Of a DNA stretch of 64,000 nt, positions 3,408-60,380 are shown one piece after another. A program made the position numbers and the translations under genes. Within the stretch, counting starts at the first letter, position 1. Each line of letters opens with the position of its first letter. The stretch comes from Pseudomonas phage vB_PaePAO1-KEN19, in the sequence record PP456878.1; one strand, given 5' to 3'. The notes under the pieces are model-generated. The model had not been told where the DNA came from, made no database searches, and saw only the letters and a program-made list of their open reading frames with translations.

Positions 3408-3481
3408 AAGAAATACCTTTTAACTGAAACAGCAAAAAGAGACACAGCTTTTGGCTGTGTCTCTTATGCCGGGTCAGATGT

Positions 3482-6236: not shown

Positions 6237-7523
<1,287 letters not shown>

Positions 7524-7525
7524 CG

Positions 7526-7558
7526 TCATAAGCCCTCCCGTAATGGGAGGGCATTATG
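7526..7558. terminator. Bidirectional intrinsic terminator (CATAA-GCCCTCCC-gtaat-GGGAGGGC-ATTATG).
   Basis: Perfect 8-bp GC stem with AT-rich extensions on both sides. Sits between convergent genes. Confidence 0.75.
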
Positions 7559-7569
7559 TTGTTTAGAAA

Positions 7570-12477: not shown

Positions 12478-13353
<876 letters not shown>

Positions 13354-19917: not shown

Positions 19918-19995
19918 TTGGATTAACCTATTTTTAAATTAGAAGATCATGATCATTACTGTAATATAGATCTTAAACTTTTTTTAATGTAATAC

Positions 19996-20030
19996 AACAT
20001 AAAGCCCTCCCCGAAGGGAGGGCCTATGTC
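19996..20030. terminator. Bidirectional terminator (ACATAAA-GCCCTCCC-cgaa-GGGAGGGC-CTATGT).
   Basis: Perfect GC stem with AT-rich extensions, downstream of the putative capsid gene. Confidence 0.75.
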
Positions 20031-25494: not shown

Positions 25495-25648
25495 GTATGT
25501 ATTAGCTAACGCTATTAGAATAATGCTAATATTGTTTATTATTAGAATAAGGATATACCTTCGGTATAGTTTATTATGAAATAAAAGCCCCTACGGGGCG
25601 ATCCGATTCATCAGTTCCACATTAGGTAATATTCATGAGTAATATTTG

Positions 25649-25679
25649 ATTACCAGTATTACTCAATGATACTGGTAAT
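25649..25679. repeat. Perfect 11-bp inverted repeat ATTACCAGTAT-(9 bp)-ATACTGGTAAT. Candidate protein-binding operator or origin element.
   Basis: Exact palindrome in an AT-rich non-coding stretch. A third ACTGGTATT copy lies at 25765-25773. Confidence 0.5.
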
Positions 25680-26387: not shown

Positions 26388-26417
26388 AATGCCCTCTCCC
26401 GAAGGAGAGGGCTTATG
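26388..26417. terminator. Terminator hairpin (GCCCTCTCC-cgaa-GGAGAGGGC).
   Basis: 9-bp stem downstream of 26426..26701. Confidence 0.65.
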
Positions 26418-26425
26418 TCGTTGAT

Positions 26426-31568: not shown

Positions 31569-31648
31569 TTGTATTTTCCTTTTTACATTAATTTAAGATT
31601 TAACAAACTCATTCAAATATAATTTTATTATTGTAATTATATTTGAAT

Positions 31649-31667
31649 GGGGCCTCAATGAGGCCCT
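31649..31667 (-). terminator. Terminator hairpin (GGGCCTC-aatg-AGGCCC) after 31676..32014.
   Basis: GC stem followed by an AT-rich tail. Confidence 0.5.
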
Positions 31668-32495: not shown

Positions 32496-32587
32496 TTTAT
32501 TTCCACCTATTTACATTAAGTTGTATGATAATGTTTACAGTATTGTCACAAATGTAATATACTGTTTAAAATGGTTTGAATATACGA

Positions 32588-32618
32588 CATAAAGCCTTCC
32601 CCTGAGGGAAGGCCAATG
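32588..32618. terminator. Bidirectional terminator (ACATAAA-GCCTTCCC-ctga-GGGAAGGC-CAATGTT).
   Basis: 8-bp stem downstream of the macrodomain gene. Confidence 0.65.
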
Positions 32619-33107
32619 TTAAACCGATGAATCTATCCACGGTGGATAAACAACCACAATCTGGTTAGGCATGTGATTAGACCAATCTTCAATGATAGTT
32701 CTAACATCAGAGAAATCTAATCCACCATTAGCACACCCTAGAGGTGGTATGATAATTTTCCAATCTGGATGAATACAGTCTTCTTCATTTTCCGCAGAAT
32801 CCGATACGTTCTCCATCATCCACTCTAGACCACGTTCAATGAAACTAATTTGAGATGGGTTCCGCCAGTTATCCTTAGTAGGAAACATCATGAAACGTTT
32901 ACCATCGGATGCTTTGTAAATAACCGGATTACCAATAGTAATAATTCTCTTTTTGCAATCGTGTTTGTATCTTTCAAAAAGTTCAGGATACTTTTCTTTA
33001 AACGATTTGGCTAAACCAGCGCCCATGACGCCAACAACATTAACAGTGATTAGATAAAGATCACCAGGTACATTGAATATATCTTTACCTATAATAAATT
33101 CAGCCAT
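32619..33107 (-). CDS. Macrodomain protein of the TARG1/DarG (ADP-ribosyl glycohydrolase) type.
   Basis: LITVNVVGVMGAGLAKSFKEKYPELFERY matches the VNxVGVMGKGIAxQFKxxYP signature. IIPPLGCANGGLD matches the PRIGCGLDRL catalytic-loop region of TARG1/DarG macrodomains. Confidence 0.65.
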   Translation of the reverse strand: MAEFIIGKDIFNVPGDLYLITVNVVGVMGAGLAKSFKEKYPELFERYKHDCKKRIITIGNPVIYKASDGKRFMMFPTKDNWRNPSQISFIERGLEWMMENVSDSAENEEDCIHPDWKIIIPPLGCANGGLDFSDVRTIIEDWSNHMPNQIVVVYPPWIDSSV

Positions 33108-33132
33108 GATAATGGCTCCTTCTACAAGAGTA

Positions 33133-33168
33133 CTAATGAGAAGATCAAAACATAGACCTTCTCATTAG
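33133..33168 (-). promoter_or_regulatory. Perfect 11-bp stem hairpin (CTAATGAGAAG-15 nt loop-CTTCTCATTAG) immediately 5' of the macrodomain gene's ribosome-binding site.
   Basis: Perfect inverted repeat. On the minus strand it is followed by TACTCTTGTAGAAGGAGCCATTATCATG (Shine-Dalgarno AAGGAG then ATG). Confidence 0.45.
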
Positions 33169-33187: not shown

Positions 33188-33664
33188 TTATTGGATTTCT
33201 GGATTAGCGTTGTAGAAGCCAATATAAGCCTTATTAAATTTCAAGTAATAATTATACTCTGAAGGCTCACCAGTTATTTCCCTAAATACCTTAGCAGTTA
33301 TAACTTCGAACTTAGAACGCCGTAGCATTGGGAATAATTTCTTACTGCGCGATAGCTCACACAATCTAATCGAGATAGCTTGATCTTTAAATAAACCTGA
33401 TTTAGTAAAGAAAGCACCTTCATGAAGCCATTGAATTACTTCATTGAAGTCTGCGCGCCATTTCTTATGCTCATTTAAAGTTTTACCATTTATAAGATAC
33501 CATAAAGCTCTAACTTTAGATCCAATAGTAAAAATACCTATTACCATTACTGCTAGACATATAGCAATTATAAATGACATATGTCCTCCTAAATACCATT
33601 GAAGATTAAAGTTCCTATTAGTGAGAGAATGAATAACACGACCACATGATGAAGTTTTATCCAT
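33188..33664 (-). CDS. Membrane protein (158 aa) with an internal transmembrane helix.
   Basis: MSFIIAICLAVMVIGIFTIG. The TGTAATATACTGTTTAA motif lies upstream. Confidence 0.45.
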   Translation of the reverse strand: MDKTSSCGRVIHSLTNRNFNLQWYLGGHMSFIIAICLAVMVIGIFTIGSKVRALWYLINGKTLNEHKKWRADFNEVIQWLHEGAFFTKSGLFKDQAISIRLCELSRSKKLFPMLRRSKFEVITAKVFREITGEPSEYNYYLKFNKAYIGFYNANPEIQ

Positions 33665-33753
33665 GTTTCAGGTACTACCGGTTGTTTAGGTTTATTTAAA
33701 GGGATGTTTTCCATGTATATACTCCACATTAGTTCATATGTGTAATATACTGT

Positions 33754-34189
33754 TTAAGATCTTTCAAATACACCTTTCCAATTAGTAGGTCTTGGATAGG
33801 ACCTAGGTAGTGATTCAGAATGTATAATGAATCCCTCGATATCCCCTTCTTTTGTTTTAACAGCAACTATATCTTTGATAATACCTTTTATTTGTAATAA
33901 GCTATTCATAATCTCACGATAGAGTTGATCAAATCTATTTGCAATGATATTAGGATTTATTGGATAACCACAAATTGATTTATAGAAACTACACATTACA
34001 TCATTGTATCTATCTGGAACACATGTCCAAAAGAAATTATGTCGTTCTTTAATATAAAGAATGATCAAGTAGTTAAGATCATCTTCATCTTTTGCGGTAT
34101 AATTAAAGTATTGTTTTAATTCAGAAAAGAATTGTTGTGACCACCTCACATCAACTCGTATAAATAGTTGTTCCATAATACACCTAAAT

Positions 34190-55641: not shown

Positions 55642-55675
55642 CATAAGCCCTCCCCTAGGGGAGGGCATTATGTTG
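55642..55675. terminator. Bidirectional terminator (CATAA-GCCCTCCC-ctag-GGGAGGGC-ATTATG).
   Basis: Perfect stem between convergent genes. Confidence 0.75.
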
Positions 55676-55679
55676 TATT

Positions 55680-57419: not shown

Positions 57420-58661
57420 CTATTTAGTTAAGCGGTAGGCTCTTACAAATAAGTCATTATTTAATAGACTTTCTAAAGTATCTTCTAATTCAGTAGCCCG
57501 TTTATCTTTACGACGCTGGGGACTAAGGAAATCTAAAATTTTATCAAAAATGGTCCACTCATTAGCTAAATCATTTATCAATGAATCAATTACTTTAATG
57601 TCATCATCAATTCCTGGTTTTAGTGATGAGTCCTTTACCCATTTAAGTTGTGCTACTAGATCTTGTTTAATTTTCATTAAACGTTGTCGTTGTTTGTCAT
57701 AACGTGAACTAATTGGATCATATCCAACTTTTAAATTACCGGCAATGATACCTAGTGTAACAGGTAAACCAATGATCATAAATAGACCTTTGAATACCTC
57801 AGCAGTAATATGGCTAGAAACAGATTTATATTCACGGTCATTATAATACCGACCTGATTTAGTTAATGCCGTTGCCAGTGGCCTTCCATAACCTAATCGA
57901 GTGGCGAATAAATCAGCTAATTGTTCATCGCGTTTACGTGATTGAACATCACCAGTTAAATGCGGACGTTGCGCTTTCTTAAATGATGATAGAATGACTT
58001 TACGAATATTTCCTTCAGTCCTATCATTAGCAAACTTCTCATAATCGGCTGGATCAACGTTTTTCTTTAACCATGTTTCATCCAATAATTGAATCTTATA
58101 CTTATTAGCTTTCCTACCCTGTAAGATAAGTATACCTTCAGTAAGTGCATAGTTAAGATAGACGTAGTCACCCATTGTAGCCAGTGTTTCCCAACAATGC
58201 CCAATTTCATGTAATGTAATGGCAGTAGCTTCTGCTATACTAACACGGTTAATAGCCGATAATAAACCAATAGATAAACCGACCTTGTATTTAAAAGTTG
58301 AAACAGCCTCACCCGTAACTTTTAAATTTGTTAAATCAATATTAATGAATGTATTGACACCTTGCTCAGTTGCTAAAGTAACTCGATTAATATTGTCAAA
58401 TTTACTACCAGTATGTCCAACTGTAAAGGATGTGTATGCACCACCCATTATACCCTGATCATCCAGGTGTGTAAACTCTATATTCATATTGAGGATCTTA
58501 GAAACATCATCACTCAGTGACCTAAAATCATTAATATCTATTCTCTGTTGATTATCTAATTTATCACGAATCTTGGTTAGATGTTCTTCGATCAATGGAC
58601 CTAAGTCACGCTTAACATTCACATCTAACACTTCATTAGAGATTTCTATCGTATGTAGCAT
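57420..58661 (-). CDS. Putative zinc metallopeptidase (HExxH) with a C-terminal hydrophobic segment.
   Basis: AITLHEIGHCWE contains HEIGH. The C-terminal hydrophobic stretch is FKGLFMIIGLPVTLGIIAGNL. Confidence 0.4.
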   Translation of the reverse strand: MLHTIEISNEVLDVNVKRDLGPLIEEHLTKIRDKLDNQQRIDINDFRSLSDDVSKILNMNIEFTHLDDQGIMGGAYTSFTVGHTGSKFDNINRVTLATEQGVNTFINIDLTNLKVTGEAVSTFKYKVGLSIGLLSAINRVSIAEATAITLHEIGHCWETLATMGDYVYLNYALTEGILILQGRKANKYKIQLLDETWLKKNVDPADYEKFANDRTEGNIRKVILSSFKKAQRPHLTGDVQSRKRDEQLADLFATRLGYGRPLATALTKSGRYYNDREYKSVSSHITAEVFKGLFMIIGLPVTLGIIAGNLKVGYDPISSRYDKQRQRLMKIKQDLVAQLKWVKDSSLKPGIDDDIKVIDSLINDLANEWTIFDKILDFLSPQRRKDKRATELEDTLESLLNNDLFVRAYRLTK

Positions 58662-58762: not shown

Positions 58763-60277
58763 ATGTTTGAGTTATTGTTGTCTTCTGGACTAACAAATAC
58801 GCCTATATATTCCGATCCTTATCCAGGTCCTAAAACACTGATAGCTGGGACAAGGGAATTAGGTTTGTATGGTGAAACAACATCTTCAGAATTATTTGGT
58901 TATGATGATGCAGCTAAATTAGTTAATATGACATTTGGAACAGTAATCAATGATGGACAACCATGGTTAAAGTTCTCTAATAAAAATGTTACTTGTTACA
59001 TACCAAAGAAACCAGCTCGTAAATCAATACAAAAATCACGGCTTAATAATGCCGGACTCCGTAATGGTGACTATGAAGTTAGATTTATGGGGAACATTTA
59101 TAAATTTGGTTTATTAACAATGGCTGGTGCCACATCAGAATGGCAAAGGTTACTTTATAATGTTCACGTATCTAATTTAAATGGTGCTAACTGGCCTTAT
59201 AAATTTACAGATAATGACTTAGGTATTAACCAAGCGGTCGCTGGTGGTATTAGCACTGATGGTACTACTAACTGGGGAAGAGACCCAGGTAGTGATCCAG
59301 TTAATGACCAGCTCTATCGTGGCTACTATGCGATTGATATAACTAGCTCGTCAAGTAGTGAAACGGGTGCTGCAACCCAAGGTTGGCGTCCAGTGGTTTA
59401 TGCTAGTGGTACATATCCATTCGTTAAAGATAATGTTATTAAACTTACTGATTTTGAAACTGATAACGAAATGGCAGCAGGTGCCCAAATAGGTAACTTA
59501 GTCTATTATTACGGTGGTAAGAATAATGCTAATACTGCTCTACGTACACTGAATTTAGTCACGGGTAAGTTAACAACATTACAACCAACTGGTACGCCTA
59601 TAGCAGTTAAACAATGCTCGGCTGTTGCATTTAATGGTAAAGTATATTTCTATGGTGGTGAAAGTGCCACAGATGGTGTACTTACTAAAGATATGCAGTG
59701 TTATGATCCTGCAACTAATACATGGGAAATAAAATCACCAGGCACGATAGCTTGCCGGTATGCACGTGGAACTAGTCTTAATGGGTTAATCTACATATTA
59801 GGTGCAGCTGATACAACTGCGACAAATAATCGTGGATTTACATTAATGTACAATCCAACTACAGATACATATACCAGTGGTGCAGCATTTAATGATACTG
59901 GGGAATATACCCAAGATTATTCAGTGAGTATTTATAATAATAGCGTATGCGTTATTGGTGGTACGGTTGGTGCTGGTGTTAATACTGGAATCATATCGTA
60001 CAATCAAACCAACAATAATTGGTCCAAACCAATAACTACAGGTATACCTCTTGGTGCAGCTATTAATATACGCCCATCTGGTGAACTTTATGTAATCGCT
60101 GGTGAAAATCAAAATAACGCACCAATTAAGTATTATGAACCACGATTAGCACGATGGATAAATTTAGGTAATTTAGAAACTGGTTTAGTGGATGCAGGTT
60201 TTGCCAATACGTTTAATAATGACGGTAAGATTTATGTTCTAAACGGTAATCAGAATTTAAAATACCAAATTAGTTAA
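58763..60277 (+). CDS. Kelch-like beta-propeller protein (504 aa).
   Basis: Repeated blades end in …YYYGG / …VYFYGG / …IYILGA / …VCVIGG with conserved W/Y spacing. The N-terminal 240 aa are non-repetitive. Confidence 0.5.
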   Translation: MFELLLSSGLTNTPIYSDPYPGPKTLIAGTRELGLYGETTSSELFGYDDAAKLVNMTFGTVINDGQPWLKFSNKNVTCYIPKKPARKSIQKSRLNNAGLRNGDYEVRFMGNIYKFGLLTMAGATSEWQRLLYNVHVSNLNGANWPYKFTDNDLGINQAVAGGISTDGTTNWGRDPGSDPVNDQLYRGYYAIDITSSSSSETGAATQGWRPVVYASGTYPFVKDNVIKLTDFETDNEMAAGAQIGNLVYYYGGKNNANTALRTLNLVTGKLTTLQPTGTPIAVKQCSAVAFNGKVYFYGGESATDGVLTKDMQCYDPATNTWEIKSPGTIACRYARGTSLNGLIYILGAADTTATNNRGFTLMYNPTTDTYTSGAAFNDTGEYTQDYSVSIYNNSVCVIGGTVGAGVNTGIISYNQTNNNWSKPITTGIPLGAAINIRPSGELYVIAGENQNNAPIKYYEPRLARWINLGNLETGLVDAGFANTFNNDGKIYVLNGNQNLKYQIS

Positions 60278-60281
60278 CGAA

Positions 60282-60314
60282 ATAAACCCTCCCGTAATGG
60301 GAGGGTTTTATGAT
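60282..60314. terminator. Bidirectional terminator (AATAAA-CCCTCCC-gtaat-GGGAGGG-TTTTATG). Its core is nearly identical to the element at 7526-7558.
   Basis: Same stem and gtaat loop as the 7.5-kb copy. Confidence 0.75.
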
Positions 60315-60380
60315 GTGTCGAAGTTTATGTTAGCAGTAATGATCAATTGATAATATTTAATTAGGAATACCTTCCATTTT

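Follow-up and report, generated by a model that had tools for sequence, protein, structure and literature searches.

The adfM locus

A stretch of 64,000 nucleotides of Pseudomonas phage vB_PaePAO1-KEN19 (sequence record PP456878.1, here called the window) was analyzed with a focus on a small macrodomain gene on the minus strand, adfM, and on the hairpin that lies directly upstream of it. The 3 kb around the locus are 100% identical to the Pseudomonas phages PaSz-1_45_270k, PaZh_1 and PA_ZH1 and 99.5% identical to phiKZ and, as judged from these matches, the window is part of a phiKZ-type Pseudomonas jumbo phage. Coordinates were converted as window = 140624 - phiKZ, based on a 106-nt match with 100% identity. 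The open reading frame (ORF) corresponds to PHIKZ104 of the phiKZ RefSeq record, where it is labelled “macro domain-containing protein” and has PHIKZ103 and PHIKZ105 as neighbours, all on the same strand. Its product is identical to phiKZ gp104 at 162 out of 162 residues, and a recent study of this protein prints the DNA of its expression construct, which agrees with the window ORF wherever the two were compared by eye. In that study, phiKZ gp104 was named AdfM, which abbreviates anti-DarT factor macro (Morgan et al. 2026, Cell Rep, PMC13309987). By this identity the window protein is the published AdfM, so that the protein finding is already known, and the features that surround the gene are the following (all on the minus strand).

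32619..33107, minus strand: adfM (phiKZ gp104 / PHIKZ104), encoding a predicted 162-aa stand-alone DarG2-type macrodomain (identity, profile, fold and published experiments)
33102..33117, minus strand: small stem-loop AGCCAU-UAUC-AUGGCU (predicted folds)
33116..33121, minus strand: Shine-Dalgarno sequence AAGGAG, 8 nt before the ATG (read from the sequence)
33129, minus strand: mapped RNA 3' end T048, phiKZ 107495 (coordinate conversion and supplementary table)
33133..33168, minus strand: stem-loop without a U-tract in the gp103-adfM spacer, equivalent to phiKZ T048 (fold, excess, mapping and conservation)
32584..32613, minus strand: canonical phiKZ intrinsic terminator GCCTTCCC-TCAG-GGGAAGGC-TTTATGTCGT (published phiKZ terminator motif)
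33735..33784, minus strand: early (virion RNA polymerase) promoter P056, start at 33735, which opens transcription unit TU084 (exact P056 sequence match)
34320, minus strand: transcription start P055 (phiKZ 106304), without a promoter motif, which opens transcription unit TU083 (exact upstream-sequence match)

The AdfM protein

An earlier reading of this DNA that was based on the letters alone (the sequence-only reading) had assigned the 162-aa ORF at 32619..33107 to the TARG1/DarG clade of macrodomains, and both motifs on which the assignment relied are present in the translation: a glycine-rich strand-loop (VNVVGVMGAGLAKSFKEKYPELF, residues 22-44) and PPLGCANGGLD (residues 121-131). The protein matches the Pfam Macro profile (PF01661) with 30.1 bits against a cutoff of 22, over residues 21-138 and profile positions 3-117 of 118. 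A phmmer search of the Protein Data Bank (PDB) returned the M. tuberculosis DarG macrodomain 5m3i as the best match (E 9e-25), with further matches to T. aquaticus DarG (5m31/5m3e, E 3e-19) and to a Thermosipho DarTG fusion (7omu, E 9e-18), and no credible match beyond DarG/DarTG macrodomains was found in this PDB sequence search. An AlphaFold2 model (predicted local distance difference test 95.6, predicted template modelling score 0.90) displays the three-layer alpha/beta/alpha macrodomain fold. A Foldseek comparison of the model with the PDB gave 200 matches at E <= 1e-3; the top four are DarG/DarTG entries (E 1e-16 to 1e-14, template modelling score about 0.8, 30-34% identity), TARG1 comes next (E about 1e-8), and the top matches among those listed are macrodomains or designed hydrolases. 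In all three kinds of search (sequence, profile and fold), AdfM is nearest to the DarG macrodomains, within the clade that had been proposed.

The catalytic residues separate the two parts of that clade label. Seven residues (N23, G29, G31, K78, P121, G124, and G128) are invariant in an alignment of 62 homologues, and N23 and K78 align with the catalytic N22 and K80 of T. aquaticus DarG. A profile built from the same alignment matched DarG with E 1e-52 and 1e-51. Human TARG1 (C6orf130; PDB 4J5Q/4J5R/4J5S) shares the macrodomain subclade and the catalytic lysine (K84 = K78) with AdfM, but the relation is much weaker (E 1e-18 vs 1e-52 for DarG): of the TARG1 Lys84/Asp125 dyad only the lysine has an equivalent, since D125 falls on the invariant G128, and the position of N23 is occupied by serine in TARG1. 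Because the aspartate of TARG1 is replaced by an invariant glycine while the equivalents of DarG N22 and K80 are themselves invariant, the protein was classified as DarG-type over TARG1-type; the DarG half of the label stands and the TARG1-type half does not. The macrodomain-subfamily profile searches and the inspection of catalytic residues that had been suggested as a check on the assignment have these outcomes, with DarG closest and N23 and K78 conserved. The main substrate of TARG1 is protein glutamate-linked ADP-ribose.

The similarity to DarG is restricted to its macrodomain. The alignment with the PADLOC DarG model (E 4e-39) is confined to the N-terminal macro half, and the NCBIfam equivalog antitoxin_DarG (NF048014) was matched with 137.8 bits, under its 250-bit cutoff, over model positions 7-148 of 338 only. 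AdfM falls outside the full-length DarG antitoxins, as this cutoff was missed and the C-terminal DarT-binding domain is absent from the 162-aa protein. No darT was found beside adfM: the five neighbour proteins have no Pfam match above the gathering cutoff, the two proteins that flank adfM have no PADLOC match, and the phiKZ annotation nearby consists of hypothetical genes only. From these comparisons AdfM is best described as a stand-alone DarG2-type macrodomain without a DarT-binding domain and without a neighbouring darT. In the absence of the C-terminal DarT-binding domain it would be an eraser enzyme only and not a toxin binder.

The function of the identical phiKZ protein has been established experimentally. 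The substrate of AdfM is the ADP-ribose that host DarT2 places on thymidine in single-stranded DNA; the purified protein strips DarT2-made ADP-ribose from a DNA oligonucleotide, the N23A substitution lowers this activity (the same catalytic residues, N23 and K78, are named there), and AdfM gives full rescue of E. coli from DarT2 toxicity (PMC13309987). Furthermore, adfM deletion mutants show a loss of titre that is specific to P. aeruginosa strains or constructs with DarTG2, AdfM localises to the phage nucleus, and protection hinges on the DarT2:AdfM balance within this compartment (PMC13309987). Earlier work on PicA-dependent import had already employed the protein as a model of cargo that enters the phage nucleus (Morgan et al. 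2024, PMC11087766). The anti-DarT counter-defence role that the sequence-only reading had put forward is borne out by this work, and the experiments that it had proposed (a hydrolase assay, rescue from DarT, and plating of a deletion phage on a DarTG host) have all been published for the identical protein with positive results (PMC13309987). Its reading of the protein was correct and had already been published, because the sequence is identical to the characterised phiKZ gp104 and, with the same genomic context, there is no difference from AdfM of phiKZ at the protein level.

A main substrate other than DarT2-modified DNA would have to be an ADP-ribosylated protein or RNA, an ADP-ribose derivative (in line with a “phosphatase” or Appr-1''-p annotation) or a modification made by the phage. 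The fold is common to TARG1 and Poa1p, the PHROG 335 match of AdfM carries the label phosphatase, and homologues occur in many phages that form no nucleus, all of which would be compatible with such a substrate. It is nevertheless improbable given the direct assays on DarT2-modified DNA, the rescue from DarT2 and the DarTG2-specific deletion phenotypes (PMC13309987), a relation to DarG that is far closer than that to TARG1, with glycine in place of D125, and the nuclear localisation that puts AdfM where the DNA is. The further suggestion that the protein undoes the work of the phage's own ADP-ribosyltransferases found no support.

Among known systems, the DarG2 macrodomain (T. aquaticus 5M31/5M3E, M. 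tuberculosis 5M3I) shares with AdfM the fold, the asparagine/lysine pair and the glycine-rich loops, and both have the published activity of releasing ADP-ribose from thymidine in DNA. AdfM differs from DarG2 in that it comprises the macro half only, has no adjacent darT, is encoded by a phage and is imported into the phage nucleus. AdfA, AdfB, and a T4-like NADAR eraser likewise serve in anti-DarTG counter-defence, and the NADAR factor is an eraser enzyme as AdfM is; in contrast to AdfM, AdfA and AdfB inhibit DarT directly, and the NADAR factor has another fold and acts on the guanine adducts of DarT1 and not on the thymine adducts of DarT2 (PMC13309987). Macrodomain homologues were identified in 275 phage records that include phages other than phiKZ-like jumbo phages, namely phiEco32-like coliphages (41% identity), Thermus phage phiMa and Streptomyces phages. 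The feature beneath the macrodomain match in the Streptomyces phages is annotated as “ADP-ribosyltransferase”.

The hairpin upstream of adfM

The gp103 stop codon is located at 33188-33190 and the hairpin begins 19 nt past it. The perfect inverted repeat with an 11-bp stem that had been reported at 33133-33168 holds at these exact coordinates (CTAATGAGAAG / CTTCTCATTAG, 33168-33158 and 33143-33133, minus strand); as RNA, it forms a 14-bp stem in which the 11 perfect pairs are followed by G.U, U-A, and C-G and an 8-nt loop UAUGUUUU (5' arm 33168-33155, loop 33154-33147, 3' arm 33146-33133, minus strand). With its 106-nt context, the hairpin is more stable than all 200 dinucleotide shuffles (z = -3.65). 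Six perfect stems that reach 11 bp or more and enclose no more than 20 nt of loop are found in the window, compared with 0.15 +/- 0.36 in dinucleotide shuffles, so the hairpin is not a product of chance and belongs to a class of such hairpins in the phage genome. Further long perfect inverted repeats, with stems of 11-13 bp and far above the shuffle expectation, are found at 3437-3465, 12549-12581, 25636-25679, and 58289-58327.

A mapping of phiKZ transcripts by ONT-cappable-seq lists a termination site, T048, at 107495(+) (Putzeys et al. 2024, PMC10914365; 10.1101/2023.10.13.562163 supplement), and the -60..+40 sequence given for T048 in the supplement is that of the window hairpin. The corresponding RNA end at 33129 is situated 4 nt beyond the 3' side of the stem, before the Shine-Dalgarno sequence. 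The hairpin is an already mapped termination site and its location is not new. The published table only lists T048, as not intrinsic, whereas the present analysis worked out that it is conserved together with adfM in different genera and shows the compensatory changes described below; the upstream hairpin and the adfM leader receive no discussion in the study of AdfM (zero occurrences of “hairpin” in PMC13309987).

The conserved phiKZ terminator motif BCCYCCCCHWWDGGGRRGGBYTTATKYYGT has no match at 33133-33168 even with 3 mismatches, and a classical terminator scan of 30-36 kb missed both this hairpin and the terminator downstream of adfM because of its tail rule. The Rfam covariance models gave no gathering-level match in the whole window, and the sole match in the local region at a permissive threshold (9.5 bits, E 5.8) is at chance level; a tRNA scan found none. 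The sequence AATCTAATGAG was considered as a dispersed genome motif and rejected, as only this copy and one near match at chance level were found.

The conservation of the hairpin was assessed in the adfM loci of the GenBank phages PS119XW, D6, and RVTF4, 11 IMG/VR contigs, and 9 Logan/ENA contigs. The AdfM proteins of these relatives share 50-69% identity with gp104. A hairpin at about -60 to -22 from the ATG is present in all but two loci (>20 diverged relatives) and occurs in two types, type A (CAATCTAATGAG...CATTAG(A)) with phiKZ, phiPA3, and D6 as members, and type B (CAATTAGATGAG...ATCTAA). The apical stem has a wholly different sequence between phages, yet its pairing is always kept. 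The basal helix was aligned by hand without gaps (22 columns, 19 distinct sequences, 7 pairs, 3' arms picked by eye): 84% of the cells pair, compared with 29-43% when the partner is slid, four out of seven pairs are altered on both sides (C-G/U-A, U-A/A-U, and A-U/G-C), and the observed covariation score was reached by 0 out of 500 shuffles. Substitutions in the 106-nt region within Phikzvirus are limited to two in the loop and one that changes G.U to A-U. No homologues of gp103, gp105, or gp106 were detectable in the adfM loci of the relatives, nearly all of which keep the hairpin, and the hairpin is therefore linked to adfM and not to the gene before it. The linkage of hairpin and adfM with compensatory changes, together with a structured start region, represents a minor, modest addition to the literature.

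In one Logan/ENA contig (L024), the conserved hairpin is replaced in the same place (540-600) by a GC-rich stem with a U-run, UUAUUUUUUG. A canonical-looking terminator at the place of the hairpin fits a conserved role in stopping upstream transcription. In another Logan contig (L019), the true adfM start probably lies 15 nt downstream of the called one (601-616); the tblastn match starts at 616 and “ATGGGGGTC” resembles the Shine-Dalgarno region of the relatives. Two further candidates in the leader were discarded. A hammerhead-like CUGAUGAG in one relative (L003) has no GAAA or cleavage-site context, and phiKZ carries CUAAUGAG instead. An upstream ORF that starts from an AUG in the 5' arm comprises 6 codons in phiKZ, runs in frame into adfM in D6, is inconsistent among the relatives and was taken as a coincidence.

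The Shine-Dalgarno place is occupied by a GGAG or GGGAG element in the relatives. In the window, the small AGCCAU-UAUC-AUGGCU stem is predicted to engage the start codon and the second codon by pairing them with the spacer and the final two bases of the Shine-Dalgarno sequence, and the region from -24 to +12 of adfM is the third most structured among 46 Shine-Dalgarno-preceded ORFs (-8.1 vs -3.8 +/- 2.4 kcal/mol). A stem at or overlapping the AUG is predicted in about 21 out of 24 loci (folds read by eye), with the variants GGUC/GGCC, GGCC/GGUU, and GACC/GGUU.

The sequence-only reading had the hairpin abut the ribosome-binding site. This is not the case, as 11 nt (TACTCTTGTAG) lie between the stem end at 33133 and AAGGAG at 33121-33116. 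Its proposal of “regulated translation or transcript processing” is upheld as far as a mapped transcript 3' end or termination site (T048) precedes the ribosome-binding site, and falls as far as the ribosome site would be sequestered. Control of adfM translation by the 11-bp-stem hairpin via the adjacent ribosome-binding site would agree with the presence of the hairpin within the adfM 5' leader, with its conservation along with the gene, and with some type-B relatives in which the Shine-Dalgarno sequence follows directly after the stem and outer pairing reaches it. Such control is unlikely, however, since the 11 nt before AAGGAG are unpaired and the Shine-Dalgarno sequence takes no part in this hairpin in the predicted fold, the mapped RNA 3' end falls between the two elements, and the initiation region is touched by the other, smaller stem (33102-33117).

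Transcription of adfM and its possible control

The adfM gene lies behind two mapped transcription units. P056 (phiKZ 106889) is labelled “early promoter, Wicke et al. 2021”, TU084 (gp102.1, gp103) and TU083 both end at T048, and their longest reads extend to phiKZ 108157 (TU084) and 108038 (TU083) and both cover PHIKZ104 (10.1101/2023.10.13.562163 supplement). None of the 149 mapped phiKZ start sites lies between gp103 and gp104. On the evidence available, adfM is expressed through read-through of the upstream hairpin. The terminator at 32584-32613 is located directly 3' of the adfM stop codon and has 2 mismatches over the 30 positions of the published motif, which has eight matches in the window and none in shuffles; an equivalent hairpin followed by UUUAUG is found 3' of adfM in PS119XW, D6, and RVTF4, the three loci that were checked. 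The ORF upstream of adfM, when called mechanically, spans 33188-33664 (minus strand, 158 aa) and overlaps gp102.1. The start of gp103 in the phiKZ annotation corresponds to window 33580, which results in 130 aa, and is supported by a PHROG 25704 match over 130/130 positions.

Overall, these features are interpreted as a cassette of early promoter, T048 hairpin and terminator that holds a gene for a DarG2-type DNA eraser, a reading to which we assign a probability of roughly 0.9. Within the cassette, the early promoter P056 would drive gp102.1 and gp103, the T048 hairpin would end part of the P056 transcripts 4 nt past the stem and ahead of the adfM ribosome-binding site, so that adfM would be made from the read-through fraction, and the canonical phiKZ terminator right after adfM would stop transcription. 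The dose of AdfM may be set by the hairpin, which would act as a partial terminator or attenuator and limit the P056 transcript that reaches adfM, and the small AUG stem might cut translation further. Both elements are kept in relatives with differing flanking genes and may therefore be part of a mobile hairpin-adfM-terminator module.

Several observations weigh against this reading. The upstream hairpin has an AT-rich stem that is followed by UACUCUUG and not by a U-tract, and T048 was not classed as intrinsic by ARNold (10.1101/2023.10.13.562163 supplement). The 3' ends recorded by ONT-cappable-seq can arise by processing or exonuclease trimming besides termination. The terminator 3' of adfM is absent from the published table of transcription termination sites. 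The covariation rests on a hand alignment and most of the double changes split just two clades, so that few independent events stand behind them. The AUG stem is a moderate outlier only and its 3' arm is coding sequence, which makes the suggestion that it damps translation a weak one. Finally, AdfM expression is called late in PMC13309987, which cites Ceyssens 2014, and this conflicts with the sole mapped promoter of a known class upstream of adfM, P056, which is early.

The missing U-tract and the missing intrinsic call would also be expected if the hairpin were an RNA processing or stability element and no terminator. A cut, or trimming back to the stem, would shield the gp102.1-gp103 mRNA from 3' exonucleases and uncouple its half-life from that of the adfM mRNA. 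The 3' end just 4 nt past the stem would be typical of exonuclease-trimmed ends, and a similar arrangement is seen at the neighbouring site T049, 5 nt beyond a GC hairpin that has no U-run. Set against these points, ONT-cappable-seq selects primary 5' ends and calls a termination site only at a coverage drop of at least 20%, and L024 carries its canonical-looking terminator with a U-run at the same position. Processing is a serious possibility on this balance, though partial termination is preferred here.

The reported late expression could be accommodated in another way if the hairpin hid a late promoter. Late transcripts would then start in the loop, with the G of its TATG (33154-33151, minus strand) as +1; they would carry no 5' arm, escape termination and provide late adfM expression. 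A TATG is needed for late-promoter use by the non-virion polymerase, though it is frequent in the genome and insufficient alone (PMC4666361). This explanation is highly improbable, as none of the 149 mapped phiKZ start sites falls in the loop and this TATG is missing from T2P-type Phikzvirus variants (TATATTCT) and from the loops of most relatives; the embedded TATG was rejected as a candidate promoter on the same grounds.

A stronger form of the preferred cassette organization, in which the hairpin and the AUG stem constitute a cis-regulatory leader dedicated to adfM, moving with the gene and determining both the timing and the amount of AdfM, is considered unlikely. One possible form of such a leader is a hairpin that terminates the early virion-RNA-polymerase transcripts from P056 and is read through by the non-virion polymerase. 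Polymerase-specific termination of this kind, in a phage with two non-canonical RNA polymerases, would reconcile the early upstream promoter with the reported late expression.

Some further elements were noted around these transcription units. An exact second copy of the P056 core (33741-33755) is present at 32553-32567 on the minus strand (AAACAGTATATTACA), which places it immediately behind the adfM terminator and ahead of gp105; the P056 region and the region of this copy have 17 nt (TTAAACAGTATATTACA) in common, and no start is listed between P056 and P057 in the ONT-cappable-seq table. A sigma-70 promoter scan of 30-36 kb gave promoter-like matches at chance level and is irrelevant here because the phage uses its own polymerases. 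Other matches to the phiKZ terminator motif are located at 7523-7562 and 60277-60316 (overlapping bidirectional pairs on both strands) and at 19994-20023, 26392-26421, and 55647-55676. T049 (phiKZ 108979, window 31645) is positioned 5 nt past the GC hairpin, and a perfect 15-bp AT-rich inverted repeat is found right after this hairpin in the gp106/gp106.1 spacer (31610-31649).

The case of AdfM indicates that the nucleus of a jumbo phage is an incomplete shield: the DNA-modifying defence DarTG2 still reaches the genome and an imported eraser enzyme is needed. This point has already been made experimentally for the same protein, and the present analysis therefore adds no new biology on the protein itself. 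The retention of the hairpin-adfM-terminator arrangement across diverged Pseudomonas chimalliviruses, the covariation in the hairpin and the unusually structured initiation region could guide work on the control of the dose and timing of AdfM and on how the phiKZ RNA polymerases are brought to stop at hairpins that lack a U-tract.

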